NCBI GenBank assembly: GCA_963802505.1
Contig: CAWDJB010000003.1
Location: 413,938-477,937, forward strand
Direction: 5' to 3'
Length of the DNA: 64,000 nt
Source of the DNA: an uncultured Acidimicrobiales bacterium
Lineage (GTDB): Bacteria; Actinomycetota; Acidimicrobiia; Acidimicrobiales; DATKAS01
The position numbers and the translations under genes are program-made. Shown in pieces: positions 10,346 through 45,593 of the stretch (position 1 is the first letter of the stretch; each line of letters begins with the position of its first letter). The notes under the pieces were generated by a model. It searched no databases and was not told where the DNA came from. It saw nothing but the letters and a program-made list of their open reading frames with translations.

Positions 10346-11575
10346 TCACGCCGCGCGCCTTCGCGGCGGCCCGGTTGTCATCACTTCCCCGTTCGGCAGT
10401 GTGACCACGAGGATGCGGTTGGGCGCGAGCTCGACTACCCACCCGGCGTCATGGATCGCGGTGTGGTGCCGCGCGCACACGGGCAAGAGGTTGTCGAGGT
10501 CGGTGCGCCCGCCGTGTCGCCACCAGCGGACATGGTGGACCTTGCAGTGATCGAACCGCACGGGGCAGTCGGGGATCGCGCAGGTCGGGTAGATCGCTCG
10601 GAGTGCTCTTCGTTGGGCGGCGTTGGCGAGCCGGGTGGTGCGACCCAAGTCGAGCCGGCCGGGCGCGTGCACGATCGCGCCGTCACGGACCACGACCGTG
10701 TGGACGCCGGCGGTTGGCGCCATCTCGGTGAGCACGCTGATGGGGAGCTCGACGGGGATACCCCAGTCGACCGTGGGACCGCGATCGTCGCTGGCTCGGG
10801 TATCGACCACGACGATCATCTCGGGTCGCCCGGCTCGCCCGGCGCCGCGTTCGCAGAGGTCGAGCAGGGCGAGGGCCTGCAAGTACGCGTTCTTCTCGAC
10901 GGGGTCTGTGGGGCAGCCGTCGGGGGTCTTGTCCGCGAACAGCTCGGACATCCGTGCCTTGAGCCGGTTGAGGAACCCGAGACCGCGCAGCGGGTCGAGC
11001 TTGCCCCAGAACTCGACCATCCCCGACGCCGGGTCGACGCGATGGTTGAACCGGATCGCTCGCTGCTGACGCTCGAGGCGTGCCTTGCCGTCGTCGCCGG
11101 CGAGGCGCTCTGCCTCGGCGCGCACCATCCGCCCGAACTCCTCGGCCGACGTGCGGGCCGCGGCCTCGGCGAGCGCGTCGATGCGCTCGGCCAGCTCTTT
11201 GCGCTTTGCTCCTTCAGCGTTGCGTAGCGCCTTGCCCGCGGCGTCGACGTGCTCGCCCGAGACCTCGCCGTTGTCGAGCGCGCTCGCGAGCTTGGGTGTC
11301 TCGTTCAGCGCCTCTTGGCGTCGCAACGCCCTCTTTGCCGACCGTTGAGAGCTCCGCGCCGCCTTGGCCATCGGCTTCTCGGGGACCGGGCTGTGCCGGC
11401 GCATGAACCCCGCGAGCGCGACCTCCCGCCCGTCGCACCACCGCCGGATCGCCGCGAGATCGGCGACCGCCTGCACGACCCGACTGCGATCGCTCGACTC
11501 GTCGACCGACTCGACCGACCGCACCAGCCCCACGACTTCGTCGACCCGCACTTCCACCTCCCGCGCGCCTACCAA
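10346..11575 (-). CDS. DUF222 / HNH endonuclease domain protein (REP13E12-like family)
   Basis: C-terminal HNH region CAIPDCPVRFDHCKVHHVRWWRHGGRTDLDNLLPVCARHHTAIHDAGW. The long helical N-terminus is typical of actinobacterial DUF222 proteins. Stop lies 4 nt after the ybaK stop. Start is TTG 11575 or GTG 11551. Confidence 0.8.
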   Translation of the reverse strand: MVGAREVEVRVDEVVGLVRSVESVDESSDRSRVVQAVADLAAIRRWCDGREVALAGFMRRHSPVPEKPMAKAARSSQRSAKRALRRQEALNETPKLASALDNGEVSGEHVDAAGKALRNAEGAKRKELAERIDALAEAAARTSAEEFGRMVRAEAERLAGDDGKARLERQQRAIRFNHRVDPASGMVEFWGKLDPLRGLGFLNRLKARMSELFADKTPDGCPTDPVEKNAYLQALALLDLCERGAGRAGRPEMIVVVDTRASDDRGPTVDWGIPVELPISVLTEMAPTAGVHTVVVRDGAIVHAPGRLDLGRTTRLANAAQRRALRAIYPTCAIPDCPVRFDHCKVHHVRWWRHGGRTDLDNLLPVCARHHTAIHDAGWVVELAPNRILVVTLPNGEVMTTGPPRRRAA

Positions 11576-11601
11576 ACCGACACAACGAGGGAAGTGAGAT
11601 C

Positions 11602-11625
11602 ACCCTACAGAGGGGGTGTGACATT
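11602..11625 (-). promoter_or_regulatory. TGTCACAC-N8-TAGGGT promoter-like element upstream of the HNH gene (copy 1 of the 20-nt inverted repeat)
   Basis: The minus strand reads AATGTCACACCCCCTCTGTAGGGT. The first 20 nt are identical to 45788-45807 upstream of recA. Confidence 0.45.
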
Positions 11626-11662
11626 AAGTCCGAGATCGAGTGGCGAAGAGTGAAGCAGTCTC

Positions 11663-12208
11663 CTAGAAGAAGGTGCTGAGGTTGCGGGCGAGGAGCACGG
11701 TCTGCTCGAGCAAGATCACGCGCTTCGCGATCTTGAACGAATCGCCGTCGCGGCGCAGCGTGTCTTGACGGCTGCCGACCCATGCGTCTTCTTCCGACTT
11801 CAACCGGGTGCGGTAGATGTGGAAGTTCGACTCGATGTCGAGCTCGTCGCCACGGTTGTCGACGACCCGCACGTTGTGCACCATGTGCCGCGTGCGTGAC
11901 GGCGGGTCCTCGGCCCACGACGTGCCCGATGCGAACTTCAGCGCACGGCCGTTGAGCATCATCTTGTCGTCGTCGAAGTAGGCCATCTCGCCCGGCTTCG
12001 TGAACTCCTTGTCGAGCTCGCGCTTCGAGCGAGTGCGGCGGATCGGCATGAAGTAGTGGGTGTCGTCGGCGAAGAGCTCGACCCACTCCGCGTACTTGTG
12101 TGCGTCGAGCAGCGCCGCTTCCTCGTAATAGAACTGCTCGACCTCGTACTGCGTCACCAGCTTGGCCAGCAGCCGGGGGTCGACCATCGCTTCCTGATCA
12201 ATCGCCAT
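11663..12208 (-). CDS. Ring-hydroxylating oxygenase beta subunit (beta-2, type A)
   Basis: 181 aa. [30 protein letters not shown] and C-terminal LSTFF. Downstream of alpha-2 on the minus strand. Confidence 0.85.
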   Translation of the reverse strand: MAIDQEAMVDPRLLAKLVTQYEVEQFYYEEAALLDAHKYAEWVELFADDTHYFMPIRRTRSKRELDKEFTKPGEMAYFDDDKMMLNGRALKFASGTSWAEDPPSRTRHMVHNVRVVDNRGDELDIESNFHIYRTRLKSEEDAWVGSRQDTLRRDGDSFKIAKRVILLEQTVLLARNLSTFF

Positions 12209-12235
12209 GTCGATCGCTCTCCTCGGTCGGATCGG

Positions 12236-13600
12236 TCACATGTACTCGCCGGGGGTGGTGTTCGCCCGGAGAGTCTCCCAGTCGCTGCCCTTCATCCACT
12301 CTGCCCACGCGGCGTAGGTCCACAGCTGCGCGTGCTCGTTCGTCGTGCCCTCGATGCGGGCGCGACCCTGTTCGTCGCGGAGGATCTTTCCGCGGCCGAG
12401 ATCCATGCGCAGCAGCTGCGGGATACGCCGGCTCGCCATGCCGCGCGTCTGCATCGTGCTCTGCGACCAGTTCTCTCCGTCTTCCTGCTCGAGCAGGCCG
12501 GCGGGGCCGAAGATGTGGTTCGCCACCATGACGTCGACGGCTCGCCGTTCGGGCGGGTTGTCTCGGTCGGTGAAGCTGTACCACCAGATCTCGGTCTGGT
12601 TCGGCGAGCGGGGGATGCGCAACGAGAGCTGCGTCGTGCCGGTCGCGACCCAGCTGTTCGGGAAGATGTTCGGGTGACCGGCGACCATCGCACCGACAGG
12701 GCCGAGCGCTTCCTGGATGTGCGGCCGGTCCCGCCACGAGTGGTCGATGAGACCACCGGCATCGCCGATGCCCTTCACGTTCGGCCCGCCGATGGCGTGT
12801 CCGTACTCGGCGACGAACGTCATCTCGTCGATGCCCGACCCACCGAGCCCCGCGGGGATCGGAAGCTCTTCACCCGTCGTCGTCTGCGCGCCGCCGACGT
12901 CGACGGTCACGCTCGGATCGGGCGGTATGATGCCCGACGCCATCGCCGACATGTGCGTGACCTGCGGGTGGTACCAGTCGAAGAGGTTGTCGACCGCGAA
13001 TTTCCAGTTGCAGTCGATGATGAACTTCTGGATGCCGGGGATGACCTCGATGTTCCCCCGCAGCGCGATCAGGTCGATGCCCAGCCGGCCGGTCGGGCCG
13101 AGGTAGTCCTCGAGCCGAGGGGCCGTCGGGTCGAGCGTCGCGAAGACGAAGCCGTGGTAGCTCTCGAGCTGCGCGACCTGACGAAGGCCAAGTTGGCTCA
13201 TGTCGAGATCGCCCTTGTAGAACTTGTCGATCCCGGGGACGCCGATGAGGTTGCCGCCGATGTCGTACGACCACCCGTGGTAGGTGCACATGAAGGCTTT
13301 GGTGTTGCCTTCGTCGGCTCGGCACACCGCGTTGCCGCGGTGCATGCACGTGTTCAGGAGGCCCCTGACGCTGCCGTCCTTCTGCCGGACCGCAAGGACG
13401 TTGTCGAGCCCCATGGGTGTCTCGACGAAGTCGCCGGCCTTGGGGATCTGCGACTCGTGGCAGAGGAACTGCCACGCTCGGCCGAAGATGAGCTCCATCT
13501 CGGCATCGAAGATGTCGGGATCGCTGAAGATCCGGCGGTCGATCTCACCACGCTCGACCGACACGAGACCCTCGACGCTGAACGTTTCGGTGATCGCCAT
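12236..13600 (-). CDS. Rieske ring-hydroxylating oxygenase alpha subunit (alpha-2, type A)
   Basis: 454 aa. CMH-x17-CTYH Rieske motif and NWKFAVDNLFDWYHPQVTH iron motif. Close paralogue of alpha-1 and alpha-5. Confidence 0.9.
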   Translation of the reverse strand: MAITETFSVEGLVSVERGEIDRRIFSDPDIFDAEMELIFGRAWQFLCHESQIPKAGDFVETPMGLDNVLAVRQKDGSVRGLLNTCMHRGNAVCRADEGNTKAFMCTYHGWSYDIGGNLIGVPGIDKFYKGDLDMSQLGLRQVAQLESYHGFVFATLDPTAPRLEDYLGPTGRLGIDLIALRGNIEVIPGIQKFIIDCNWKFAVDNLFDWYHPQVTHMSAMASGIIPPDPSVTVDVGGAQTTTGEELPIPAGLGGSGIDEMTFVAEYGHAIGGPNVKGIGDAGGLIDHSWRDRPHIQEALGPVGAMVAGHPNIFPNSWVATGTTQLSLRIPRSPNQTEIWWYSFTDRDNPPERRAVDVMVANHIFGPAGLLEQEDGENWSQSTMQTRGMASRRIPQLLRMDLGRGKILRDEQGRARIEGTTNEHAQLWTYAAWAEWMKGSDWETLRANTTPGEYM

Positions 13601-13679
13601 GAGCGCACGATCTCACGAGACGCGGCGCCGATGCGGCACCGCCGTTCCCCTAGATGAGACGGATTCCAGCCGGGACCAG

Positions 13680-14366: not shown

Positions 14367-14398
14367 TGCAGAACGTCGGCGCGCGGTCCCGATGCGGG

Positions 14399-15403
14399 AT
14401 GCGGCACAGTGCTCTCGTGCCGCTCGAACCGGAGGAGATCGCGGCGTTCGTCGACCTCGAACGCGGCACCGTCGCCGGACGAGCGTTCACGGACGACCTC
14501 GTCTACGACATCGAGCTCGAGCGAGTGTTCGCCCGCGCGTGGTGCTTCCTCTGCGACGCGGAGGGATTCACCACACCAGGTCAGTTCGTGAGCACGTTCA
14601 CGGGCGAGGATCCGGTGACGGTTGTGCGGCAGACCGATGGCACCTCGAAGGTCATGTTGAACTCATGTCGCCATCGCGGCTTGCCGGTATGTGGGCCCGC
14701 CGGCGAGGCGCAGCGGCTCACCTGCGGCTACCACGGATGGACCTACGACCTCGACGGGCGGCTCGTGGGCGTGCTCGACGGGGACGAGGACTTCCGACGA
14801 TGGGCGCAGGACCGACGGCTCGCGCTGATCCCGATCACTCGCACCACGGAGGTGGGCGGGCTCCTGTTCGGCACGTGGGATGCGGGTTGGGCGCCGTCGC
14901 TGGAGGCTGAGGGTTCAGCGCTTGCGGACGCGATCGGGGCCGTCCGCGCCGCGGGGCCGCTCGAGCGCCTTCCGAAGCCAGTCCGGCTCGACGAGAACTG
15001 GAAGGTGGCGGTCGAGTCGCTCGGCGCAGTTGCCGAGAGCGAAGACGGCGTGACCCTGTTTCCCTCGTTTTTCGCATTGCCTTCCCGCGGGCTCGTCGCC
15101 GCGGTGCACCCGAAGGGACCTCACGCGTGCGAGGTCGCGCTCTGGGCGTCCGCGCAGGCACCGTTCGACGCGAGCGATCGTCTTCGCTCCGTGATCGAAA
15201 CGGAACTGGAACCGAAGGGTCCGAGGACCGTCGTGCTCAACCTGAAGCCTCGCGCGACGGAGATCGATGGGTGCCCGGCGGAGGACATGCCGGTCGCACG
15301 GCCTCCGAGACACATCGATGCTCGGGCGACTGCAGACCTCTACCGCGCGTGGATCGAGCACATGGTCGACGACAGTCCGTTGGCGGGGCTGATCACGACA
15401 TAG
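14399..15403 (+). CDS. Rieske-domain oxygenase-alpha-like protein with a degenerate catalytic domain
   Basis: Intact Rieske motif CRH-x16-CGYH. The position aligned with NWKF..D..D.YH....H reads ENWKVAVESLGAVAESEDG, with no His ligands. Only 334 aa and no adjacent beta subunit. Confidence 0.7.
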   Translation: MRHSALVPLEPEEIAAFVDLERGTVAGRAFTDDLVYDIELERVFARAWCFLCDAEGFTTPGQFVSTFTGEDPVTVVRQTDGTSKVMLNSCRHRGLPVCGPAGEAQRLTCGYHGWTYDLDGRLVGVLDGDEDFRRWAQDRRLALIPITRTTEVGGLLFGTWDAGWAPSLEAEGSALADAIGAVRAAGPLERLPKPVRLDENWKVAVESLGAVAESEDGVTLFPSFFALPSRGLVAAVHPKGPHACEVALWASAQAPFDASDRLRSVIETELEPKGPRTVVLNLKPRATEIDGCPAEDMPVARPPRHIDARATADLYRAWIEHMVDDSPLAGLITT

Positions 15404-15480
15404 CTGACGATGCGGGCCCTGATTCCGTTCAGCAGAACCAGACCATTGGCCCGTTTCTCGCCCAGCGGTACACAGACACG

Positions 15481-15505: not shown

Positions 15506-15523
15506 CCGGGGGGACAACGACAC

Positions 15524-17003: not shown

Positions 17004-17011
17004 CCCCAACC

Positions 17012-26800: not shown

Positions 26801-26822
26801 CGCTGACGGTCCTTCCCCCCGC

Positions 26823-28363: not shown

Positions 28364-28425
28364 GGCGTTCCGGCACACGAAACGCGGTCTTCGTCGTCGG
28401 CACTGCCCGCGCCCATCGTTGCGAC

Positions 28426-31720: not shown

Positions 31721-31738
31721 GCCGAGACAGGAGCCGAC

Positions 31739-33327: not shown

Positions 33328-33345
33328 GCTCCATGGCTGAGCTCC
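33320..33345 (+). repeat. Tandem 13-bp duplication ATGGCTGAGCTCC x2 at the E1-alpha stop / E1-beta start
   Basis: Copy 1 is 33320-33332 and contains TGA 33325-33327. Copy 2 is 33333-33345 and supplies the in-frame E1-beta ATG 33333. Confidence 0.95.
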
Positions 33346-34390: not shown

Positions 34391-34702
34391 ATGGCCTGGG
34401 TGAAGGCGTGTGACGAAGGGGCGCTCAGTGACGGCGAAGCCGTCGTCGTCGACGTCGACCCGCCGATCGCCGTGTTCAACGTCGACGGCGAGTACTACGC
34501 CATTGACGACACGTGCACCCACGACAAGTACTCCCTGGCCGACGGATACATCGATGACGACGTGGTCGAGTGCGCGTTGCACATGGCCAAGTTCTCGATT
34601 CGCACCGGCAAGGCGTTGAGCCTCCCCGCCACCCGTGACCTCTCCGCGTATCCGGTGAAGGTCGAAGGCGGCCAAGTGCTCGTCGATGTGAGCCGGGAGT
34701 AG
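34391..34702 (+). CDS. Rieske-type [2Fe-2S] ferredoxin component of ring-hydroxylating oxygenases (BphF-like)
   Basis: 103 aa with CTH-x16-CALH. Confidence 0.85.
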   Translation: MAWVKACDEGALSDGEAVVVDVDPPIAVFNVDGEYYAIDDTCTHDKYSLADGYIDDDVVECALHMAKFSIRTGKALSLPATRDLSAYPVKVEGGQVLVDVSRE

Positions 34703-34722
34703 CGGTACCTGAGGAGGACCCA

Positions 34723-36048
34723 ATGATCACCGACGTCACGAAGCTCGTCGACTCCGAGAACGGCCTGCTCGATCCGAGGATCTACACCGACCCCGATCTC
34801 TACGAAGCCGAGCTCGAGCACGTCTTCGGTCGCTGCTGGCTCTTCCTCGCCCACGATTCGATGATCCCGAAGGCCGGCGACTTCATCCAGATGTACATGG
34901 CCGAGGATCCGGTGCTCGTCGTGCGTCAGGCCGACGGCTCGGTGAAGGCATTTCTCAACCAGTGCCGCCACCGCGGCATGCGCATCTGCCGCGCGGACCT
35001 CGGGTCGACGAAGACCTTCACCTGCTCGTACCACGGGTGGGCCTACGACATCGCGGGGCGCCTGATCAACGTCCCCCACGAGGCCGACGGGTACCACAGC
35101 GAGATCGACAAGGCCGAGTGGGGACCAATCCAGGTTGCGCAGGTCGAGAGCTACAAGGGCCTGATCTTCGGGACGTGGGACCCGACCGCTCCCTCACTCG
35201 AGGACTACCTGGGCGACTTCAAGTGGTATCTCGACTCGTTCTGGGATCGTTGGCCCGGCGGCACCCAGGTGATCGGCGGCGTGCACAAGTGGGTCATCAG
35301 GTGCAACTGGAAGTTCGCCGCGGAGCAATTCGCGAGCGACATGTACCACGCGGAGATCAGCCACGCGTCGGCGATCATGGCGCTCGCGCCGCAACGCCAG
35401 GTGAGCGTCGAGGAGCAGGCCGAGCGGCGCATGCAAGGCGGACGTCAGGTCTCGTCACCCAACGGGCACGGCATGGGCTTCTTCACCACCGAGAACTTCG
35501 ACCAGGACGGTCCGCTCGCGCGCGATTGGGTGCTCTCCAATCGCGAGATGCTCGAGGAGCGCCTCGGTGAGTCGCGCATGCGCTACGTGCGGGGCCACCA
35601 GACGGTGTTCCCGAACTTCTCGTACCTTTCGAACGGGACGATGCGCGTGTGGCAGCCGCGCGGCCCGGGCGAGATCGAGGTGTGGGCATGGGGCGCCGTG
35701 CCGGCGATGGCTCCTCCCGAGGTCAAAGAGGCGCTTCGCGTCAACATCCTGCGCACGTTCAGCCCCTCGGGTCTGCTGGAACAGGACGACGGCGAGAACT
35801 GGAACGAGATCCAAAAGGTGCTCCGCGGCCGAGTCGCGCGGAGCCATCCGCTCAACGCCCGCATGGGCCTCGGGCACGCGAACCACGACCTCGGCGACTA
35901 CCCCGGGCGCACGAACTACGTGTTCGGCGAGGAGGCCGCACGAGGTCTCTACCGGCGCTGGGCCGACCTCATGACCGGAAAGAGCTGGGCCGAGCTGGCC
36001 GAGCTCCAGGCCGCTCGCGAGCCCGAACAGGTGGCCGCAGGAGTGTGA
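34723..36048 (+). CDS. Rieske ring-hydroxylating oxygenase alpha subunit (alpha-6, type B)
   Basis: 441 aa. CRH-x17-CSYH and [20 protein letters not shown]. No adjacent beta subunit. Confidence 0.9.
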   Translation: MITDVTKLVDSENGLLDPRIYTDPDLYEAELEHVFGRCWLFLAHDSMIPKAGDFIQMYMAEDPVLVVRQADGSVKAFLNQCRHRGMRICRADLGSTKTFTCSYHGWAYDIAGRLINVPHEADGYHSEIDKAEWGPIQVAQVESYKGLIFGTWDPTAPSLEDYLGDFKWYLDSFWDRWPGGTQVIGGVHKWVIRCNWKFAAEQFASDMYHAEISHASAIMALAPQRQVSVEEQAERRMQGGRQVSSPNGHGMGFFTTENFDQDGPLARDWVLSNREMLEERLGESRMRYVRGHQTVFPNFSYLSNGTMRVWQPRGPGEIEVWAWGAVPAMAPPEVKEALRVNILRTFSPSGLLEQDDGENWNEIQKVLRGRVARSHPLNARMGLGHANHDLGDYPGRTNYVFGEEAARGLYRRWADLMTGKSWAELAELQAAREPEQVAAGV

Positions 36049-36144: not shown

Positions 36145-37017
36145 ATGTCAGCCAGGGGGGAAGGCATGGCAGTCGCTCAGCGGTCTCGTCGTAGCCCGAC
36201 GGCCACCGATCCGGCAGTCGTCGATGAGGTGCTCGACGACGGCGCCGAAGACGTCGAGGCCGGTCCATCAGGCGACCTCGACACCTCGGTCGGCAAGGCG
36301 CTCGCCTTGCTCGAGGCGTTCCGCACCAGCTGCCGGCCGATGGGTGTCACCGAGCTCGCTCGGCTGGCGCACCTACCCAAGTCGACTGCGTACCGGTTGC
36401 TCGCGATCCTGCGCCAGTGGAACCTCGTCGAGCGATCCGGCTCTGACTATTGCCTGGGCAAGCACCTGTTCGAGCTCGGCAACCTCGTGCCCTACTGCCA
36501 GCCTCGAGGGCTCCGCGACGTCGCGCTGCCGTACCTGATGCGCCTGTACGAGGCCAGCCACGAGACAGTGCACCTTGCGGTGCTCGATGGCACCGACGTG
36601 CTCTACATCGAGAAGATCTACGGCCACAACCCGTGCAAGGCGCCGACCTACGTCGGTAGCCGCATGCCGGTCGAGTGCGCGGCGCTCGGCAAGGCGATGC
36701 TCGCGTTCTCCGACAAGGAAGCAGTGCTGCGAGTGCTCTCGCGTGGGCTGCAGCGCGTGTCGCCCTACACGATCGTCCAGCCTCAGCACTTCGTCGATCA
36801 GCTCGGCACCATCCGCCAGGAAGGCGTCGCCTTCGATCGGGAGGAGTCGACGATCGGGCTCACCTGCGTCGCAGCCCCCGTGCTCGGCCCCGGAGGCAAG
36901 GCGATCGCGGCCGTGTCGCTCGCGGGCCCGACCTACCGTTTCAAGCCTGATGAGTTTGCGGGGCGGGTCCGTGAAGCAGCGGTGGGGATCGCGCAGGACT
37001 TCCAGGCCGTCAATTGA
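36145..37017 (+). CDS. IclR-family transcriptional regulator
   Basis: SVGKALALLEAFRTSCRPMGVTELARLAHLPKSTAYRLLAIL (wHTH) plus a C-terminal IclR effector domain (HLAVLDGTDVLYIEKI...). ATG 36166 is an alternative start. Confidence 0.8.
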   Translation: MSARGEGMAVAQRSRRSPTATDPAVVDEVLDDGAEDVEAGPSGDLDTSVGKALALLEAFRTSCRPMGVTELARLAHLPKSTAYRLLAILRQWNLVERSGSDYCLGKHLFELGNLVPYCQPRGLRDVALPYLMRLYEASHETVHLAVLDGTDVLYIEKIYGHNPCKAPTYVGSRMPVECAALGKAMLAFSDKEAVLRVLSRGLQRVSPYTIVQPQHFVDQLGTIRQEGVAFDREESTIGLTCVAAPVLGPGGKAIAAVSLAGPTYRFKPDEFAGRVREAAVGIAQDFQAVN

Positions 37018-37607
37018 ACCCGGCAGCAACACCGCTCCGCTCTGACGCGCGCCGCAACCGTGACCGTATCCTCGTCGCGGCAGCCGAGGTGTTCGCCGAG
37101 TGCGGCGTCGACGCGCAGATGACGGACATCGCGGCTCGCGCGGAGGTCGGCATCGGCACGCTGTATCGCCACTACTCGACCAAGGAAGAGCTCATCTACT
37201 CGGTCGTCAACGCCTGGTTCGAAGACCTCCTGGTCGCGACCGAAGAGGCGGCGACGATCGCCGACCCCGCCGTGTCGTTTCGCACGTTCTTCGAGCAGAT
37301 GTGCGTCCGCGTGGCGAGCGCAGCGACGCTTGCTCGCGCGCTCCACACGCCGTTCACGACGATGCCGCGGCCGGTGCCCGCAGAACGCCGTGTCGTCGAG
37401 ATCATGTGTGAGCTCGTCGATCGCGCGCAGGTCGCGGGAACGCTGCGGCGCGACATCGTCGCCGAGGACCTGCCGCCACTGCTCGCGACGATCGCGGAGG
37501 CGTCACACGACGACTTCTACGCGCATCGCAACTGGAAGCGCTACATGGAGCTCATCCTCGACGGGCTCTGCACACCGGTACCGAGCCGGCTCGCGCCCCG
37601 CAGCTAG
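37014..37607 (+). CDS. TetR-family transcriptional regulator (TTG start overlapping the IclR stop)
   Basis: RRNRDRILVAAAEVFAECGVDAQMTDIAARAEVGIGTLYRHYSTKEEL HTH. The only start upstream of helix 1 is TTG 37014, which overlaps TGA 37015-37017. Confidence 0.75.
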   Translation: MNPAATPLRSDARRNRDRILVAAAEVFAECGVDAQMTDIAARAEVGIGTLYRHYSTKEELIYSVVNAWFEDLLVATEEAATIADPAVSFRTFFEQMCVRVASAATLARALHTPFTTMPRPVPAERRVVEIMCELVDRAQVAGTLRRDIVAEDLPPLLATIAEASHDDFYAHRNWKRYMELILDGLCTPVPSRLAPRS

Positions 37608-37625: not shown

Positions 37626-38456
37626 TCAGCTCGATTCCGCGGCCATCGACGCCATCATCGCCTGCATCGCCGACTTCAGGGCGATGCCGATCCCGCCGTC
37701 GCAGTTGTGGACCGTGCCCGTCGCAGTGCGCGCATCGCGACGGTTGGCGAGCAACACGAAGTGGCCGACGTAGTCGTTTGCCTCAGGCATGAAGCCGAGC
37801 GGCATGAACGACTTCGCCATCTCTGGATCCATGACATCGCCGATCTTCATGTCGCCCATGCCGAGTGACGGCACGCCGCGGAGGTCGGTGATCATCCCGC
37901 CCGGGGCGACGCCGTTCACGCGGATGTCGGGAGCGAGATCCCACGCGAGCTGCTTGACCATGCCCATCACTGCGTGCTTCGAGGTCGTGTAGAGCACGCC
38001 CCCGCCCCCCGGGTAGAAGCCGGCGTTGGACACCGTGAAGATCATCGAGCCTTTCGACGCCTTCAGCGCAGGAACGGCAGCGCGCGCCGCCAAGACGTAG
38101 CCCTTCACGTTCACGCCGAACAGCTCGTCGAAGGCCGACGCGAGGTTCTCGAGCGGCACGTCGGCGATGTTGACGTTGAAGTCCCAGATGCCGGCGTTGC
38201 CGACGAGGCAGTCGAGCTTGCCGAAGGCCGCCACGGTGTCGTCGACCGCTCGCTGGTTGTCGTCGGCGACGGTGACGTCGCCCACGGTCACGCTGACCTT
38301 GTCGCCGAGCGCGGAGTCGAGGTCGGCAGCCTTGTCCTTCGACTTCTCGAGCACGCCGACTCGCGCGCCTTCCTCGATGAACCGCTCGACCACGGCACGG
38401 CCCAGGCCGCTTCCCCCACCGGTGACCAGCGCGACCTCTCCATCCAGCTGACCCAT
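37626..38456 (-). CDS. bphB: cis-2,3-dihydro-2,3-diol dehydrogenase (classical SDR), BphB-like
   Basis: Start ATG 38456 with GGAGGGGG 6 nt upstream. [49 protein letters not shown]. By-eye colinear with BphB sequences I recall. Confidence 0.85.
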
Positions 38457-39556
38457 GACGTCCCCCTCCGTTGACCGAACCTCGAGCGCGACGCGCTGAC
38501 AGCGTGCCCGTTGGCGATCTCGACGGCGACGTCGATGATCTGATCTTCCTGGCCGCCGACCAACTTGCGCTCGGCGCATCGCAACAGGATCTCGGCGCCG
38601 GACACGTCGTAGCGCTCGGCCGCGCGGTAGGCGTGCTTGAGGAAGCTCGAGTACACGCCCGCGTAGCCCATGATGAGCGCGAGCCGATCGAGCAGGCACT
38701 CGCCGTCCATCACCGGACGCACGATGTCCTCGGCGACGTCGATCAGCGCGAGCACGTCGACGCCGGTCTCGATGCCGAGCCGATCGCACACAGCCGCGAG
38801 CGCCTCGCACGGAGTGTTTCCCGCCCCTGCGCCGAAACGTCGTGTCGAACCGTCGATCTGCACCGCGCCGGCACGGTGCGCGACCAGGCTGTTCGCGACC
38901 CCGAGCGCGAGGTTCTCGTGGCCGTGGAAGCCGACCTGGGCGTCGTCGCCAAGCTCTGCGACGAGAGCAGCGACGCGCTCGCCGACCTGGTCGAGGATCA
39001 GCGCGCCCGCGGAGTCGACGACGTAGACGCACTGGCAGCCGGCGTCGGCCATGATCCGAGATTGCACCGCCAGCGAGTCCGGGTCGCTGGTGTGCGCCAT
39101 CATCAGGAAGCCGACGGTCTCGAGGCCCAGCTCGCGGGCGAGGCCGAAGTGCTGGATGGAGATGTCGGCTTCGGTGCAGTGGGTCGCGACACGCACGATC
39201 GACACGCCCGCGTCGGCGATGTACTTGATGTCGTCCTTGGTGCCGACGCCCGGAAGCATCAGCGCGGCGATCTTGGCGGTGTCGGCGACCTTCACCGCGG
39301 TCGCCATGAGCTCGCGCTCGTCGGTGAGCGAGAAGCCGTAGTTGTAGGAGGACCCGCCGAGGCCATCGCCGTGCGTCACTTCGATCACCGGCACGCCCGC
39401 GGCATCGAGCCCCGAGACGATGTCGCGGACATGGTCGGTGGTGAAGCGGTGGCGCTTCGCGTGGGACCCGTCGCGGAGGCTCGTGTCGGTCAGCCGGAAG
39501 TCGAGCGTGTCCGAGTACTGCCGCGCTCCGTACTTCGCGGTCGAGGGTGCATCCAT
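38288..39556 (-). CDS. 4-hydroxy-2-oxovalerate aldolase (DmpG/MhpE/BphI/HsaF family) with an unexpected 61-codon 3' extension
   Basis: [58 protein letters not shown]. The frame does not stop until 38288, overlapping the bphB-like gene by 169 nt. Confidence 0.85.
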
Positions 39557-40347
39557 CAGGGGGTCTCCTCCGGGCTGATGATCGCTCGGACGGAACCGAG
39601 CCCTTCGATGGTCACTTCGGAGCGCTGACCGGCGGCGATCGGCGCCATGCGGCCGAGAGCGCCGCTCATGATCACGTCGCCCGCGCGCATCGGTGTGCCG
39701 CGCGTGGCCATCGTCCGTGCGAGCCAGAGCGCCGCGTTCAGCGGGTGCCCGAGGCACGCCTCGCCAACGCCTTCGGAAACCACGTCACCGTCAACGGTGA
39801 GCTGCATCTTGCAGGACCGGAGGTCGACATCGGGCAGGCGCACGGGTCGGTTGCCGAGCACGAACGCACCTGAGCTCGCGTTGTCGGCGATCGTGTCGAC
39901 GATGCTGATCTGCCATCCGCTGATGCGCGACGCGACGACTTCGATCGCGGGCACGACGAAGTCCACCGCGGACATCAGCTCGACGATCGTCGTGTCCGGA
40001 TGGGGGAGGTCGCGAGCGAGCACGATCGCAACCTCGCCCTCGACGCGAGGTTGCGGCACCTTCCGAGCGGGGATCGGCTCGGCGTCGCCGTAGCAAGTGT
40101 CGGCGAACAGCGCGCCGAAGTCGGGCTCGTACACACCGAACTGCTCTTGCACCGCGAGTGACGTCAGGCCGATCTTGCGGCCGATCAGCCGACGGCCGAG
40201 CGAGAGCGATCGAGCGGTGTTGATCAGCTGGACCTCGTACGCAGCTTCGACGTCGCCCTCTTTGAGGTCGCCGAGCAGCGGGTCGATCGTCACCGCGTTC
40301 TGCTCGGCCTCCCAAAGGCGGTCTGCCAGCGCTTGTGCCGTCGTCAT
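39556..40347 (-). CDS. 2-oxopent-4-enoate (2-keto-4-pentenoate) hydratase (MhpD/BphH/HsaE family)
   Basis: 263 aa. [34 protein letters not shown], and a FAH-fold C-terminus. TGATG overlap with the aldolase start. Confidence 0.85.
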
Positions 40348-41240
40348 CGGGCCCCTTCCAGCAGGTGCCGCGCGATCACCTCGCCCACCTTCGTCGCGGC
40401 GGCGGTCATGATGTCGAGGTTCCCAGAGTACGAGGGGAGGAAGTCACCCGCCCCCTCGACCTCGAGGAAGATCGCCACGCGGCCGAGGTCACCGAACACA
40501 CCGGGCGGATCGAACTGCGGCTCCGAGCGCAGGCGATAGCCCGGCACGTACTGCTGCACCTCGGAGACCATGTCGACGATCGAAGCGCCGATCTTCTCCT
40601 CGTCGACGTCGGTGGGCAGCGAGCAGAAGATCGTGTCTCGCATGATCAGCGGCGGCTCGGCGGGGTTGAGGATGATGATCGCCTTGCCCCGCTGCGCGCC
40701 ACCGATCGCCTCGACCGCCGACGCCGTCGTGCTCGTGAACTCGTCGATGTTCGCTCGCGTGCCGGGGCCCGCCGACTTCGATGCGACCGTCGCGACGATC
40801 TCCGCGTAGGCGACAGGGACACAGCGCGAGACCGCGTAGACCATCGGGATCGTCGCCTGGCCGCCGCAGGTCACCATGTTCACGTTTGGTTCCGAGATGT
40901 GCTCGGACAGATTCACCGGCGGGATCACGTAGGGGCCGCGGGCTGCGGGCGTGAGGTCGATCGCCCGGATGCCGGCCTCTCGGTAGCGAGGCGCATTGCG
41001 CACGTGGACGTACGCAGAGGTCGCTTCGAACACCATGTCGGGCTTCTCGGGCCGGGCGAGCAGCCAGTCGAGTCCCTCATGTGATGCCTCGACTCCCGCC
41101 GCGCGCGCCCGAGCCAGCCCTTCGGACTCGGGCTCCACGCCGACCATCGCCACTGGCTCGATCCAGTCCGAGCGCAGGAGCTTGTAGAGCAGGTCGGTGC
41201 CGATGTTGCCCGATCCGACGATCGCCGCGGTCGCCTTCAC
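40344..41240 (-). CDS. Acetaldehyde dehydrogenase (acylating) (DmpF/MhpF/BphJ/HsaG family)
   Basis: GTG 41240 gives [24 protein letters not shown]. An internal [11 protein letters not shown] motif is present. 4-nt overlap with the hydratase start. Confidence 0.85.
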
Positions 41241-41307
41241 CGAGGGAGCGTCCCTCGTAGGGCGTGACGAGGGAAGAGTCGGGTTCCACCCGACGAAACC
41301 CGTCACG
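41241..41307. promoter_or_regulatory. Palindrome-rich divergent spacer between the lower-pathway operon and beta-5
   Basis: CGAGGGA-GCG-TCCCTCG (41241-41257). Nested repeats CGTGACG (41263-41269) / CGTCACG (41301-41307), enclosing GTCGGG (41278-41283) / CCCGAC (41289-41294). Confidence 0.3.
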
Positions 41308-41341
41308 TGCGCAGATCGCACCCGGCGCGCACACTCGACCC

Positions 41342-41887
41342 ATGGCCGTGGAGGCGTCGAAGACCCGCGTCCGGGTAGATCCCGAGACGTACTACGACAT
41401 CGAGCAGTTCCTTCTCGACGAGGCGGACCTCCTCGATGAGCGCCGATTCGAGGAGTGGATCGAGCTCATGGCCGACGACGTCCACTACTGGATGCCGACG
41501 AGAGCGAACCGCCTGGCGCGTGAGCTCGACCGAGAGATCTCGGCTCCGGACGAAGCCGCGTTCTTCGACGAGACCAAGGAACATCTGCAGCAGCGTCTGT
41601 TCCGCTTGCAGACGGGCATGGCGTGGGCTGAGGATCCGCCGTCTCGCACACGGCATCTCGTGACGAACCTCCGCGTCTACCCGACTGACGACCCCAACGA
41701 GTACGACGTCGAGACGTCGTTCTTGCTCTATCGCACCCGGCTCGAGCGCGAGATGGACCTCTTCGTGGGCAAGCGGTTCGACCGCTTGCGTCGCGCCGAC
41801 AACCCCTACGGTTGGCAGATCGCGAAGCGCAAGATCATCCTCGACCAATCGACGCTGCTGGCGAAGAACCTCAGCTCGTTCTTCTGA
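41342..41887 (+). CDS. Ring-hydroxylating oxygenase beta subunit (beta-5, type B), not adjacent to any alpha subunit
   Basis: Start ATG 41342. [42 protein letters not shown]-terminal LSSFF. Confidence 0.85.
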
Positions 41888-41893
41888 GCGGCG

Positions 41894-42907
41894 GTGCAGT
41901 ACCAGACGCTGGGGCCCTCGGGTCTCTATGTCTCGCGCATCTGCATCGGGAGCGCGACGTTCGGCGCCGGCCCCCTGGCCGACGAGGCCGAGCGGATCGT
42001 GCACCGCGCACTCGACCTCGGGATCAACTTCTTCGACACGGCGAACTCCTACGGCAACCAGCCGAGGTTCGACCGTCCGGGCGCACCTCCGGCGGCCGAG
42101 CGGGCGAGCGCCGAGGAGATCATGGGGAAGGCCCTGCGGGGCGTCCGCGACGAGATCGTCCTGGCCAGCAAGCTCTCGGAGGCGATCGGCCCCGGCCCGA
42201 ACGACGGACGCGTCCCGGGACCCAAAGCGGTGAACCCGGGTGGCGGCCTGTCGCGCTACCACATGCTCCGCGAGGTCGACCGCAGCCTGCAGCGGCTCGG
42301 CACCGACCACCTCGACATCCTCTACGCGCATCATCCCGACCCGACGACGCCGCTCGAGCAGACGATGCAGGCGTTCGACGACCTCGTGCGGGCGGGGAAG
42401 ATCCGCTATGGCGCGCTCTCGACGTTTCCCGCGTGGCAGATGGTCGAGGCGCTGTGGGTGTGCGACCGGCTCGGGCTGGGGGCGCCGATCTGCAATCAGG
42501 TGATGTACAGCATGCTGAGTCGGGAAGTGGAGCGCGAGATCGTGCCCGCGTGCCTTCGCACCGGGATGACGCTCACGGCGTTCAGCCCCCTCGCTGGCGG
42601 GTTGCTCGCGGGCTCCGCGGTGCTCGAGCGGTCGGTGAGCGGATGGCAGCGCTTCGGGTCGGCGCGCACGTACCCGCCCGAGCAGATCGAGACGGCGCGT
42701 CGGGTCGAGACGCTCGGCGCGGAATGGGGGATCGAGGCGGCACAGCTGGCGTTGGCGTGGCTGCTGTCGCGGCCCATGCTCACGAGCGCGGTCGTCGGAC
42801 CCGAAGTCGTGGCGGAGGTGGACGCGAACGTCGGCGCGGTCGACGTGCAGCTCGACGCCGTGCAGCTCGCGCAGCTCGACGAGGTGTTGGGGCCGGTCAG
42901 CCCTTGA
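41894..42907 (+). CDS. Aldo/keto reductase (AKR-3, paralogue of AKR-2)
   Basis: 337 aa. GINFFDTANSYG, GGLSRYHMLREVDRSLQRLGTDHLDILYAHHPD, FSPLAGGLLAG. Confidence 0.85.
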   Translation: MQYQTLGPSGLYVSRICIGSATFGAGPLADEAERIVHRALDLGINFFDTANSYGNQPRFDRPGAPPAAERASAEEIMGKALRGVRDEIVLASKLSEAIGPGPNDGRVPGPKAVNPGGGLSRYHMLREVDRSLQRLGTDHLDILYAHHPDPTTPLEQTMQAFDDLVRAGKIRYGALSTFPAWQMVEALWVCDRLGLGAPICNQVMYSMLSREVEREIVPACLRTGMTLTAFSPLAGGLLAGSAVLERSVSGWQRFGSARTYPPEQIETARRVETLGAEWGIEAAQLALAWLLSRPMLTSAVVGPEVVAEVDANVGAVDVQLDAVQLAQLDEVLGPVSP

Positions 42908-42910
42908 CGC

Positions 42911-43858
42911 TCAACCCTTGATGAACTCGATGAGCACCTGGTCGTGCTCCTCGGGCTTCTCCCACTGCGGCCAGTGCGCCGCGTCGAGCATGTTGTAGAA
43001 GCTCGCGCCGGGGATGAGGCTCGCGCAGTACTCGCCGTAGTCAGGTGCCTGGCCGGGGTTGTGTTCGGTCCAGAACACGAGGGACTCGGGCTTGAAGGTC
43101 GCCACGTCGTCCTCGGTGAAGCGCAGCTTGCGAGTCCACGGCCGACCGATGCGATACACCTTCTGCATCGACTCGTAGATCTCCAGGAACGAGTACAGGC
43201 GCAGCCGGATCTCGACCATCTCGTCGGTCATGCGCTCCGGGCTCGCGACGAGCCACTCCATGCGCTTGCGAACGTTCTCGAACGTGGGGCTGACGACCGA
43301 CTGCTGCGACAGCTCCTGGAGCGTCGAGCCGCCGCCCGGGTTCTCCTTGAAGTCCTTCTTCTTCAGGTCGACCGGGCCGAACCCGGTGTTCATGATCAGC
43401 TTCCCCGCGAGCTCGGGATGACGCATGCCGAACTCGAACGTGATCGCGCCCCCCATCGACTCGCCCTCGATGTGGGCGTAGTCGTGGCCGAGCGCTTGGA
43501 TGAGGTCGGCGAGGGCGTCGGCCTGCAGCTCGGTCCAGTGCTCCTCGTCCCAGCCGTCCTTCTGGCTGAAGCCGTGGAACAGGGCGTCGATCGCGTAGAC
43601 GTGGAATCCGTGGTTCGCGAGGTTGTGGAGGCTGCGGGCGTACGTCTCGGCATGACCGCCGATGCCGTGGATCAGGATCAGGGGCTCGCCGGTGCTGTCG
43701 CCCGCCTCGATGACACGGTGGTACGAGTGCTTCCCTTGCACGATGCGGGTCTGCGTGCCCAGCAGCTCGACAGCGACGGATTGCCACTCGTCGAGCGGCT
43801 TCGCCTTGGGCGTGTTGTTCAGCGTCAGCACCTTGGTCATGACACGACTCTGCGCCAC
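42911..43858 (-). CDS. Alpha/beta-fold hydrolase, meta-cleavage-product hydrolase-like (H1b, paralogue of H1a)
   Basis: IHGIGGHAETYARSL, GESMGG, AAHWPQWEKPEEH. Met7 (43840) is an alternative start. Confidence 0.75.
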   Translation of the reverse strand: MAQSRVMTKVLTLNNTPKAKPLDEWQSVAVELLGTQTRIVQGKHSYHRVIEAGDSTGEPLILIHGIGGHAETYARSLHNLANHGFHVYAIDALFHGFSQKDGWDEEHWTELQADALADLIQALGHDYAHIEGESMGGAITFEFGMRHPELAGKLIMNTGFGPVDLKKKDFKENPGGGSTLQELSQQSVVSPTFENVRKRMEWLVASPERMTDEMVEIRLRLYSFLEIYESMQKVYRIGRPWTRKLRFTEDDVATFKPESLVFWTEHNPGQAPDYGEYCASLIPGASFYNMLDAAHWPQWEKPEEHDQVLIEFIKG

Positions 43859-43917
43859 GTTCGGATTCGCGTCGCCCGCGCTGTTCCCCTGAGTTGAACA
43901 CCTGCTAGTACGGCCGA

Positions 43918-44820
43918 GTGCCAGCGGTCGAAGTCAGTGGCCTGAAGAAGGCGTACGGCCCGCTCGAAGCGGTGCGGGGCATCGACTTCACCGTGGAGCA
44001 GGGCGAGGTGTTCGCTCTCTTGGGCCCGAACGGCGCGGGCAAGACGACCACGCTCGAGATCCTCGAGGGATTTCTCGCCAGGAGCAGCGGCACCGTGCGC
44101 GTGCTCGGCGTCGACCCGGCCGACGCGGATCGACCGTGGCGAGAGCGCGTCGGCATCGTGTTCCAGGGTGCAGTGGTCGAGCCCTACCTCAAAGTGCGCG
44201 AGGTGCTCGAACGCAACGCGGGCTACTACCCGAAGCCTCGGGGCGTGGAGGAAGTGCTCGAGCTCGTCGGGCTTCGGGAGAAGGCGGACGCGCGCGCGAA
44301 GACGCTCTCGGGTGGACAGCAACGGCGCCTCGACGTCGCTCTCGGCATCATCGGCGCGCCGGAGCTTCTCTTTCTCGACGAGCCCACGACGGGCTTCGAT
44401 CCGACTGCACGGCGAGGGGCATGGGAGCTCGTCGACCGGCTCCGCGACGAAGGCGCGACGATCATCCTCACGACCCACTACATGGACGAGGCCCAGCACC
44501 TCGCCGACCGTGTCGTCGTCATCAACCAGGGCGAGATCGTCGCGTCGGGCACTCCCGAGACCATCGGCGGGCGCGCGGAAGCGGCGGTGCGCATCCGGTT
44601 CGGGCTGCCGGCTGATGTCGATGCCGACTCGATGCCGATGGCGGGCACCCGTGACGGTCATGGCATCTACGTCATCGAGACGACCGACGAGGTGCGCGTC
44701 TTGCACGCGTTGACCTCATGGGCGCTCGACCGGGGGATCGACCTCGTCGGGCTCACAGTCGACCGGCCGTCCCTCGAGGACGTCTACATCGAGCTGACAT
44801 CTGCGGAGGTCGTGGAGTGA
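43918..44820 (+). CDS. ABC transporter ATP-binding protein (ABC-2/DrrA-like)
   Basis: GPNGAGKTT, LSGGQQRRLDVALGI, LLFLDEPTTGFD. Confidence 0.85.
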   Translation: MPAVEVSGLKKAYGPLEAVRGIDFTVEQGEVFALLGPNGAGKTTTLEILEGFLARSSGTVRVLGVDPADADRPWRERVGIVFQGAVVEPYLKVREVLERNAGYYPKPRGVEEVLELVGLREKADARAKTLSGGQQRRLDVALGIIGAPELLFLDEPTTGFDPTARRGAWELVDRLRDEGATIILTTHYMDEAQHLADRVVVINQGEIVASGTPETIGGRAEAAVRIRFGLPADVDADSMPMAGTRDGHGIYVIETTDEVRVLHALTSWALDRGIDLVGLTVDRPSLEDVYIELTSAEVVE

Positions 44821-45593
44821 ACGCTGTCGCGCTCTCGGCCCATCAGCTCCGCTACGAGCAGAAGAGCTACTGGCGGAACCCCGCATCGGCCGTCTTCACG
44901 TTCGCGTTCCCCGTGGTCTTCCTGCTGCTCTTCGGATCACTGAACACCGGCAGCACCATCGACTTCCTCGGCGGACTGAAGTGGAACCAGTACTACATCG
45001 CCGGGATCTTGTGCTTCGGCGTGATCAGCGCATCGTTCACGAACCTCGCGATGACGGTCTGCATCCGTCGCGACGAGGGGGTGCTGAAGCGACTCCGGGG
45101 GACACCGCTGCCGGCGACGTCGCTGTTCGGGGGACTGCTGTTGAACTCGCTCGTGGTCGCGGCCGTGCTGACTGCGATCTTGCTGAGCATCGCGGTCGCG
45201 TTCTTCGACGTGACGTTCCCTGGGCACTGGGGCGCCCTCGTGGTGTCGCTGATCGTCGGTACGGCTGCGTTCTGCGCGCTCGGCGTCGCCGTGGCAGCAG
45301 TCATCCCTCACGCTGACGCCGCGCCGGCGATCGTGAACGGGATCCTCTTTCCGATCCTGTTCGTCTCGGGTGTGTTCTTCCCCGTGCAGGACGACTCGGT
45401 CCTGACCAGGATCGGTGACATCTTCCCGGTGCGGCACTTCGTCAACGCGGTGTTCTCTGCGTTCGACCCTCGCATCGCGCACGGCCTCGCCCATGGGTGG
45501 AACTGGGGCGACCTCGCGATCGTCGCGGCGTGGGGCGTCGCCGGGGCGATCGTCGCCGTGCGCAAGTTCCGCTGGGATCCCCGCCGCGGTTAG
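44817..45593 (+). CDS. ABC-2 type transporter permease
   Basis: GTG 44817 overlaps the ATPase stop (GTGA). Six hydrophobic segments. YEQKSYWRNPASAVFTFAFPVVFLLLFG is a typical ABC-2 N-terminus. Confidence 0.75.
   Translation: MNAVALSAHQLRYEQKSYWRNPASAVFTFAFPVVFLLLFGSLNTGSTIDFLGGLKWNQYYIAGILCFGVISASFTNLAMTVCIRRDEGVLKRLRGTPLPATSLFGGLLLNSLVVAAVLTAILLSIAVAFFDVTFPGHWGALVVSLIVGTAAFCALGVAVAAVIPHADAAPAIVNGILFPILFVSGVFFPVQDDSVLTRIGDIFPVRHFVNAVFSAFDPRIAHGLAHGWNWGDLAIVAAWGVAGAIVAVRKFRWDPRRG

Follow-up and report, generated by a model that had tools for sequence, protein, structure and literature searches.

The interval between ybaK and recA (positions 10346-45593) in a 64,000-nucleotide stretch of an uncultured Acidimicrobiales bacterium (contig CAWDJB010000003.1; the whole stretch is hereafter called the window) is likely to be an old mosaic accessory island, lodged in an insertion-tolerant gap and exchanged by homologous recombination between congeners. 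Its cargo is predicted to serve the catabolism of aromatic compounds. A sequence-only reading of the same stretch had described about 35 kb of accessory genes parting ybaK from recA, as one inserted catabolic block, and had left the mode of acquisition open. The extent holds, since about 37 genes were called there and annotated with Pfam; the single block does not, and the mode can now be narrowed.

Raw open reading frame (ORF) lists are useless at the GC content of the window (about 68%), and genes were called by segmentation of coding frames on codon-position GC (GC at the third position, GC3), followed by Pfam annotation of the ORFs. A CinA scan with one genome per species gave 80 loci with 10-kb flanks, onto which all window proteins were mapped; the unit of comparison is the locus (windows of at most 21 kb per relative) and not the whole genome, and the congeners have a CinA 76-91% identical to that of the window. 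CinA homologues place the window in an uncultured Acidimicrobiales lineage; its closest relatives are found on long contigs of metagenome-assembled genomes (MAGs) from soil and sediment, many of them from the Microflora Danica Nanopore project (PMC12313526). Two are conspecific strains of the window, namely L001 (96-97% nucleotide identity over 391-22208) and L082 (95-96% over 24674-45953); L002 and L084 belong to the same contig, and L005 and L085 are grouped as one source of the long form described below. Eleven further contigs (L011, L013, L014, L018-L020, L028, L048, L051, L059 and L069) have a CinA 63-69% identical to that of the window and MAG labels of Beta-, Gamma- or Alphaproteobacteria or Bacteroidota; most likely these are Acidimicrobiia contigs that were wrongly binned.

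Long and short forms of the ybaK-recA interval

The distance from cinA to recA is 36.5 kb in the window and 41-4855 bp in 19 non-congeneric Acidimicrobiales loci, and the spacing in the window is therefore a real expansion. In other Acidimicrobiales families the genes cinA-(thpR)-recA-spoVS-miaB-miaA-dapF-hflX are contiguous, an order found in several of these families and in keeping with the parallel that had been drawn with the conserved actinobacterial neighbourhood of Mycobacterium tuberculosis. In most Ilumatobacteraceae-titled loci and several others, recA had no match within 10 kb of cinA. The left side of the operon is expanded too: in the outgroups a SMP-30/gluconolactonase gene (SGL) abuts rimO, whereas 6 kb lie between them in the window.

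Within the genus, two forms of the interval were found. Six genomes (L003, L004, L007, L008, L009 and L088) carry a short form, with 5.8-6.9 kb from cinA to recA and typically the order ybaK-E1a-E1b-IclR-(TetR)-ABC-2 ATPase-permease-recA. In the window, these shared genes code on the plus strand for the alpha subunit of a thiamine pyrophosphate (TPP)-dependent 2-oxoacid dehydrogenase E1 (E1a, 32341-33327; Pfam E1_dh), its beta subunit (E1b, 33333-34313; Pfam Transket_pyr and Transketolase_C), an IclR regulator (36145-37017; Pfam), of which copies occur in both forms, a TetR regulator (37014-37607; Pfam), which among the short forms is found only in L004, and an ABC-2 type exporter (ATPase 43918-44820, permease about 44817-45593), which is present in all congeners directly upstream of recA. 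The E1 pair has no E2 or E3 nearby and is conserved in every congener, whether of the short or the long form; the gene call for L082 gave one fused protein of 615 aa.

The long form contains three additional modules, each confined to long forms: module A (11663-32278, 20.6 kb, both strands; delimited by Pfam, NCBIfam and long-versus-short synteny) between ybaK and E1a, module B (34391-36048, plus strand) between E1b and IclR, and module C (37626-43858, 6.2 kb, both strands) between TetR and the ABC-2 genes. It is collinear in the window, L001/L082, L002+L084, L005+L085, L006, L039, L086 and L087, that is, in at least seven species-level lineages, and the outer junctions are identical across all carriers. 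These sources are independent samples and include an Illumina-style soil scaffold; L086 is a Chinese farmland scaffold. All long and short forms sit between ybaK and recA, and alternative contents occur among close kin, as in L002 (long) versus L003/L008 (short), at a backbone divergence of 6-7%, and in L039 (long) versus L007/L009 (short), at about 10%.

The block is composite, because about 6 kb of it (E1a/E1b, IclR and ABC-2, at 32341-34313, 36145-37017 and 43918-45593) occur at the same position in short-form congeners; what is specific to the long form is three modules and not one 35-kb insertion. The synteny comparison that the sequence-only reading had proposed thus bears out a greatly expanded interval, which exceeds that of short-form congeners by about 30 kb and that of other families by at least 31 kb, with a presence that varies among congeners, but does not bear out one insertion event. 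The gap also accepts unrelated cargo, since the clade IV genomes L007 and L009 hold an RTX-like gene in the slot of the absent IclR. The product of this gene (L007 14279-15946; also in L009), between E1b and the ABC-2 genes, is a secreted protein of 555 aa with RTX-like GGxGxD repeats. Furthermore, a DHA2-like major facilitator superfamily (MFS) transporter gene (26817-28441, plus strand), a 1.6-kb insertion inside module A, and the gene of the third aldo-keto reductase (AKR3; 41886-42910, plus strand) in module C occur in the conspecific L082 and in none of L084, L085 and L086; both are single-gene insertions specific to the species of the window.

Probable exchange of the interval between congeners

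The two forms do not follow the backbone phylogeny. A rooted tree was built from rimO-pgsA-cinA by neighbour joining (2990 columns, 100 bootstraps, five outgroups, 12 genomes; L086 and L087 left out). In it, the long-form L002 is nested among short forms as (L088,(L008,(L003,L002))), with bootstrap values of 98-100%, and the long-form L039 is sister to the short-form pair L007+L009. At least four changes between the long and short states are needed on this tree.

A sharp step in divergence accompanies the change of state. Up to the last codons of ybaK, starting from SGL, L003 and L008 share 92-95% identity with L002; after the ybaK stop, their identity to L084 (the same contig as L002) falls to 81% in E1 and 72% in IclR, and L008 regains 92% at ABC-2. 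Between L002/L084 and L003/L008, the E1 and IclR genes that they have in common are thus 19-30% diverged and the adjacent backbone 5-8%; short-form IclR copies generally differ from long-form copies by 22-31% of nucleotides. Simple deletion cannot make such a step, which points to a transfer of the whole interval into one of the lineages from a diverged congener. In line with this are the left 8.8 kb of module A, the distance between L002 and the clade III genome L005 (0.148) being smaller than that between the window and L002 (0.167), with the order reversed in the backbone (0.192 for L002 and L005, 0.175 for the window and L002). What the data favour is homologous recombination in the conserved flanks, through which the interval is exchanged as a whole. 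The mode that had been left open is in this way narrowed by the divergence step and the nested position of L002.

Vertical inheritance with deletions only, in which the genus ancestor had the long form and every short form is an independent deletion, would explain why long forms are found to either side of the root of the genus (L039 on one, clades I and III and L002 on the other) and why the short forms are heterogeneous, L004 keeping TetR and L007/L009 having the RTX-like gene, as independent decay would give. Deletions do occur in the region, as shown by remnants of an HNH gene (see below). Each short form would however need three separate precise deletions, of modules A, B and C, L002 lies within three short-form genomes in strongly supported nodes, and the E1/IclR divergence with its step at the ybaK stop is not producible by pure deletion. 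We consider this explanation unlikely.

Exchange of an old mosaic island, the favoured reading, could have proceeded as follows. The gap between cinA/thpR and recA would first have gained ybaK, the orphan E1 pair, IclR and the ABC-2 exporter, giving the short form of about 5-7 kb, and the addition of modules A, B and C, which total about 28.5 kb, would then have given the long form. The identity of its junctions among all carriers speaks for a single origin of this form, which would since have been passed on vertically in several species. Between congeners, the whole interval would have been lost or gained by homologous recombination, with crossovers in ybaK/cinA on the left and ABC-2/recA on the right, for which no integrase, transposase or att site would be needed. 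Smaller events, namely the insertions of MFS and AKR3 and the wandering of an endonuclease gene of the DUF222-HNH family, would have come later.

Four observations weigh against this reading. Only the left part of module A and E1 of L002 lean to clade III and module C does not, so that the import would be mosaic or its donor unsampled. At the genus root, long-ancestral and short-ancestral scenarios each need at least four events. The codon usage of the block differs from that of the backbone (permutation test, 0.031 versus a null of 0.019), a difference that we tentatively attribute to gene class. Finally, the relatives are mostly long-read MAGs, and an individual contig could be a binning or assembly chimera.

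Flexible genomic islands of the replacement or additive kind, exchanged by homologous recombination, are known from aquatic prokaryotes (PMC4033161, Front Genet 2014). The ybaK-recA interval resembles them in its fixed position between core genes, its alternative contents in relatives, the lack of integrase and transposase, the jump in divergence at its border and an island tree incongruent with the core tree. It differs in its cargo, a predicted aromatic-catabolism supercluster in place of cell-surface glycosylation genes; in its variants, which are nested (short within long) and not fully non-homologous replacements; and in the exchange between species-level lineages of soil Acidimicrobiales at about 6-20% nucleotide divergence, seen here in a comparison of loci alone.

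Age and composition of the island

The divergence of the block is like that of the backbone, at 84-90% nucleotide identity for long-form genes. Between clades, block genes are 80-93% identical in nucleotides and backbone genes 69-88%; the corresponding distances are 0.11-0.19 for the block and 0.17-0.23 for rimO-ybaK. The oxygenase paralogues share 36-73% of their amino acids, and the six alpha subunits fall into two old paralogue families. On these comparisons the long-form block appears to be old and not a recent import. The sequence-only reading had stated that close relatives all sharing the block, with backbone-like composition, would point to an ancient, vertically inherited arrangement; many relatives do carry it, and others carry the 5-7 kb version instead.

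A single, relatively recent insertion of one 35-kb catabolic island from a foreign donor could account for the excess in length over short-form congeners and other families, for the departure of codon usage from the backbone in the permutation test, and for a total GC content about 2.4 points under the backbone (66.5% versus 68.9%). The GC deficit lies wholly in codon positions 1 and 2, and GC3 is slightly higher in the block (0.895) than in the backbone (0.860); the lower GC content was accordingly rejected as a sign of foreign origin. The same collinear block with the same junctions in at least seven lineages, at backbone-like divergence, also speaks against a recent arrival, as do the E1, IclR and ABC-2 genes of the short forms, which leave at least three separate segments that differ. 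These long/short synteny and divergence data largely refute the model of one recent insertion, which we regard as very improbable.

The window furthermore shows no mobility genes. No integrase or transposase Pfam domain was found in any called ORF of the 64 kb, ARAGORN found no tRNA gene (0 in the window) and an Rfam scan of the window gave no match; the repeats of at least 24 nt are all paralogous oxygenase genes, and no att-like repeat or insertion sequence end flanks the block. The earlier statement that integrase, transposase, tRNA and att direct repeats are lacking agrees with these searches. Classical tRNA-linked, integrase-bearing islands and integrative and conjugative elements carry catabolic genes, for example the clc and bph-sal elements. 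The interval resembles such elements as a catabolic block of tens of kb with a patchy distribution among relatives; it differs from them in its native GC3 and backbone-like divergence, and in that no integrase, relaxase, conjugation genes, tRNA target or att direct repeats were found in the window.

The same arrangement could in principle be an artefact, with catabolic DNA joined to housekeeping genes only in a chimeric contig. Several one-nucleotide homopolymer frameshifts in the window, typical of long-read assemblies, and the predominance of MAGs among the relatives would fit. The ybaK/RHOb2 and ABC-2/recA junctions (RHOb2 being the second Rieske oxygenase (RHO) beta gene, at the left end of module A) and the internal order recur, however, in independent assemblies (ERZ25039492, ERZ25039566, ERZ25039488, ERZ25039490 and ERZ1823576) from different samples, on contigs of up to 1.4 Mb, and their sequences are 3-16% diverged and so are not copies of one error. 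An artefact is exceedingly unlikely.

The frameshifts are one-nucleotide indels at 7293, 27587, 29127 and 31257, which split rimO, the MFS gene, AKR2 and RHO alpha5, respectively, into two frames each, the indel in the MFS gene being a homopolymer one. Two of the four lie clearly in C/G homopolymer runs, and at every site at least one relative reads through. They are probably long-read assembly errors and not pseudogenes, the closest relatives being Nanopore soil MAGs (PMC12313526). The view that they mark a decaying island was dismissed, given that they are one-nucleotide indels, that relatives read through them and that one affects the housekeeping gene rimO. Another homopolymer error is probable in the ORF of the DmpG-type aldolase in module C, which runs about 70 codons beyond its expected end (38288-38500) and overlaps the start of the short-chain dehydrogenase/reductase gene; L082 differs by a one-nucleotide indel at 38461.

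The HNH endonuclease gene at the left edge

The left edge of the interval is occupied by a unit of the DUF222-HNH endonuclease family (10346-11625, 1.28 kb, minus strand), which consists of a 409-aa ORF (10346-11575) and a conserved 50-nt leader. The sequence-only reading had taken the tight spacing at this edge as a feature of the block. The spacing is real, the stop codons of ybaK (TGA, 10339-10341) and of the HNH gene (10346-10348 on the plus strand) being 4 nt apart; as a block boundary it is an artefact of the independent insertion of the HNH gene, which is absent in L001. Indeed, this 96-97% identical strain has, in place of window positions 10345-11659, about 22-27 nt similar to the 3' end of the HNH ORF. 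Orthologues (78-82% amino acid identity) are found between RHO beta4 and E1a in L084 (7594-8877), L086 (6962-8243) and L087 (7157-8440), and an HNH remnant of 88 nt lies at the same place in L085 (8847-8934). Homology among the copies begins exactly at the stop codon and ends about 50 nt upstream of the start, after the conserved GGGGGTGTGACATT. The unit is a separate, strain-variable insertion and not part of the catabolic cargo; by its distribution it behaves as a mobile selfish gene. Beside the HNH gene of L086 (8245-8980) are two small ORFs, one with a weak Pfam match to Barstar, a nuclease inhibitor, which hints at a nuclease/immunity pairing.

The window copy matches the HNH domain (PF01844, 25.1 bits, cutoff 21.4) and has no DUF222 match up to E = 1, nor has the L086 copy; the L084 orthologue (82% identical) matches DUF222 with 41.1 bits (cutoff 24.4). 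This last match ties the family to the repeated REP13E12/DUF222-HNH genes of M. tuberculosis (named in PMC10589994 with reference to Gordon et al. 1999). What they have in common is an actinobacterial, free-standing gene for about 400 aa whose HNH motif is C-terminal, which varies in location and has decayed remnants; the present unit differs in being seen once per locus and in its sharp ends, from the stop codon to the 50-nt leader. The kinship is at domain level only, the window copy lying below DUF222 significance.

One may ask if this gene moves the island, by breaks at module boundaries whose repair from a donor allele co-converts the cargo in a homing-type process. Every copy or remnant in the region lies exactly at a boundary of module A, either ybaK/RHOb2 (window, L001 remnant) or RHOb4/E1a, with the copies at both boundaries on the same strand, and by our own count the chance that two sites among about 35 intergenic ones both fall at one of six module boundaries is about 0.03. 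Nevertheless, no examined genome holds both copies, nhmmer found no remnant at the ybaK/E1a junctions of short forms, and the long forms of L002, L005, L006 and L039 have ybaK abutting RHOb2 with no HNH trace. Relative to the adjacent beta-subunit gene, the HNH gene is not oriented alike at the two sites, and boundaries of convergent or unrelated transcription units may simply tolerate any insertion. We find HNH-driven mobility highly doubtful. Equally little credence is given to a variant in which two copies serve as direct repeats for the excision or integration of module A; as a means of deleting module A it was discarded, there being no nhmmer remnant at the short junctions and no genome with both copies. 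That module A is an integrase-less mobile catabolic cassette, spread through HNH breaks at the empty site and repair from the carrier allele, seems accordingly very doubtful; if true, a large metabolic cargo would be co-converted in bacterial chromosomes in the manner of homing.

Gene content and predicted catabolic function

In brief, the interval encodes six Rieske oxygenase alpha subunits, five beta subunits and one Rieske ferredoxin; one BphC-type extradiol dioxygenase, four alpha/beta hydrolases, three aldo-keto reductases (AKRs), a HcaB/BphB-like short-chain dehydrogenase/reductase (SDR) and a nitroreductase; a DmpG/DmpF/hydratase trio, the E1 pair, the IclR and TetR regulators and the HNH gene; and a Liv-type ABC importer, the MFS transporter and the ABC-2 exporter. 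Module A comprises, in order, RHO beta2/alpha2 (minus strand), the nitroreductase (minus strand), a Rieske-only protein, the importer (LivG/LivF/SBP/LivHM), RHO alpha3, AKR1, RHO alpha4, a hydrolase, RHO beta3, the BphC-type dioxygenase, the inserted MFS gene, AKR2, a BphD-like hydrolase, RHO alpha5 and RHO beta4. Module B consists of the Rieske ferredoxin (34391-34702) and RHO alpha6 (34723-36048). Module C carries on the minus strand the SDR, which is cis-dihydrodiol dehydrogenase-like, the DmpG-type aldolase, a 2-oxopent-4-enoate hydratase-like protein, the DmpF-type acetaldehyde dehydrogenase and a hydrolase, and on the plus strand RHO beta5 and AKR3. The Rieske-only protein (14399-15403, 334 aa) has an N-terminal Rieske domain and no detectable Ring_hydroxyl_A domain; it is kept in long-form relatives and yet is fast-evolving (55-62% amino acid and 70-76% nucleotide identity). 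A homologue of RHO alpha6 (P0122, 76%) was considered as a clue to the origin of the island and set aside, as it sits in an unrelated MFS-RHOb-RHOa context (L083).

At either end of module A stands a paralogous oxygenase alpha/beta pair, the two being inverted relative to each other (11665-13578 versus 30386-32276; inverted repeats I2, I4 and I5) and about 75-80% identical in nucleotides over about 1.9 kb. The rimO-ybaK operon, too, lies between inverted pairs, RHOa1b1 and RHOb2a2 (1381-3283 versus 11665-13578). These pairs could be substrates for inversions; none was seen at these pairs among the relatives examined.

All tested alpha subunits are assigned by NCBIfam and PDB matches, at class level, to the putative phenylpropionate/biphenyl/benzene dioxygenases. 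The six alpha subunits carry PF00355 and PF00848 and the five beta subunits PF00866. The PDB structures nearest to the alpha subunits are 8k0a, 1uli and 2xr8, which are phenylpropionate/biphenyl dioxygenases; RHO alpha6 has its best match in the alpha subunit of 3-phenylpropionate/cinnamate dioxygenase (8k0a, 8e-150). The best NCBIfam matches are to HcaE, BphC/HsaC and BphD/HsaD. Against the NCBIfam equivalog cutoffs, the scores are 323-555 bits for HcaE (cutoff 830), 290 for BphC (366), 252 for HsaC (450) and 239 for BphD (462). The sole pass is that of the SDR, with 389.5 bits (cutoff 330) for NF004849, the model of 3-(cis-5,6-dihydroxycyclohexa-1,3-dienyl)propanoate dehydrogenase. The lower meta-cleavage trio (38.5-41.3 kb) shows the domains FAA_hydrolase, HMGL-like with DmpG_comm, and Semialdhyde_dh with AcetDehyd-dimer.

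From this domain content, the interval may be a multi-substrate aromatic catabolic supercluster. Aromatic substrates would be taken up by the Liv-type importer and the MFS transporter, and several two-component Rieske dioxygenases of the Hca/Bph class, sharing one Rieske ferredoxin, would dihydroxylate the ring. The SDR would re-aromatise the product, the BphC-type enzyme would carry out extradiol cleavage and the C-C hydrolases would handle the ring-fission product, from which the hydratase, the aldolase and the acylating aldehyde dehydrogenase would yield pyruvate and acetyl-CoA. Control could be exerted by the IclR and TetR regulators.

Two points tell against a more specific assignment: Pfam found no ferredoxin reductase (FAD/NAD reductase domain) in the 64-kb window, and the oxygenases lie below the equivalog cutoffs. 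Because of these, the pathway is assigned at class level only; the ferredoxin reductase may be encoded elsewhere in the genome or be shared. Known hca/mhp and bph clusters likewise combine an alpha/beta Rieske dioxygenase, a Rieske ferredoxin and a HcaB/BphB-like cis-dihydrodiol dehydrogenase with a BphC-type extradiol dioxygenase, a BphD/MhpC-type hydrolase and a MhpD/E/F-like hydratase, aldolase and acetaldehyde dehydrogenase. Unlike them, the present cluster has oxygenases, a BphC and hydrolases well below the equivalog cutoffs, six alpha subunits and yet one ferredoxin and no reductase found in the window, and additional AKRs, a nitroreductase, an orphan E1 pair and a Liv-type importer.

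Left accessory segment and conserved flanks

A second catabolic segment (198-6291), which had been noticed upstream of rimO, was recovered by the gene calls. It comprises a family III CoA-transferase (198-1319, minus strand; PF02515, 3e-103), RHO alpha1 (1365-2732, plus strand), RHO beta1 (2743-3285, plus strand) and a meta-cleavage-type hydrolase (3286-4272, minus strand), a TetR regulator (4311-4958, minus strand) and an NmrA-like NAD(P)-binding protein (5236-6291, plus strand), the genes from RHO alpha1 onwards being annotated with Pfam. The CoA-transferase is present in all congeners and absent in the outgroups, where SGL abuts rimO. The pair TetR-NmrA is found in the window, L001, L002, L003, L008 and L088 and is absent in L004-L007, L009 and L039, which have the arrangement SGL-CoA-transferase-rimO. 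The 3-kb module from RHO alpha1 to the hydrolase (1365-4272) shows a presence/absence polymorphism: it is present in the window, L001, L002 and L088, and L003/L008 have about 9 nt in place of positions 3202-6209 of L002, between flanks of 92-95% identity. The segment could thus have been built in nested layers, the SGL/rimO adjacency gaining first the CoA-transferase, then TetR-NmrA and then RHOa1-RHOb1-hydrolase.

The left backbone operon (6301-10341, plus strand) consists of rimO (6301-7549, split by the indel near 7293), pgsA (7552-8109), cinA (8106-9359), a LigT/thpR phosphoesterase gene (about 9350-9853) and the YbaK-type editing domain gene (about 9832-10341), all recognised with Pfam. 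The operon rimO-pgsA-cinA-thpR is kept in all 81 cinA loci; ybaK is the genus-specific exception. On the right, recA (45871-46929, with a GTG start at 45871), a SpoVS-family gene (47056-47454) and miaB (47475-48890), all on the plus strand and annotated with Pfam, are followed by miaA, dapF and hflX, the whole plus-strand series (45871-51869) having an order conserved in the outgroup loci; outside the genus, recA is followed by spoVS (in most loci), miaB, miaA, dapF and hflX. The slot 3' of recA holds the SpoVS-family gene in the lineage of the window and many other Acidimicrobiales, and recX in the Mycobacterium comparison. Between hflX and lexA (60079-60711, minus strand; Pfam) lie dapC/D/E-like genes (Pfam), and beyond lexA a gene with a weak match to LysM proteins (61245-61823) and nrdR (61838-62329), which ends the right backbone. 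Gene calls and Pfam thus reproduce the flank order first read from the sequence, pgsA-cinA-thpR-ybaK ... recA ... miaB ... miaA-dapF-hflX ... lexA/LysM/nrdR.

Significance

The interval is a fresh example of a known genome architecture, the flexible island, in a little-studied lineage. A large accessory block in a conserved neighbourhood, even one with a slightly lower GC content, need not be a recent horizontal insertion, and the edge that first drew notice belonged to an unrelated selfish HNH gene. The polymorphism between long and short forms could be tracked in soil metagenomes against aromatic or lignin-derived substrates. In summary, an uncultured soil actinobacterial lineage appears to assemble and share a large aromatic-degradation gene set without classical mobile-element machinery; the indications are of layered accretion in a tolerant gap beside recA and of wholesale allele swapping, by homologous recombination, between related species.

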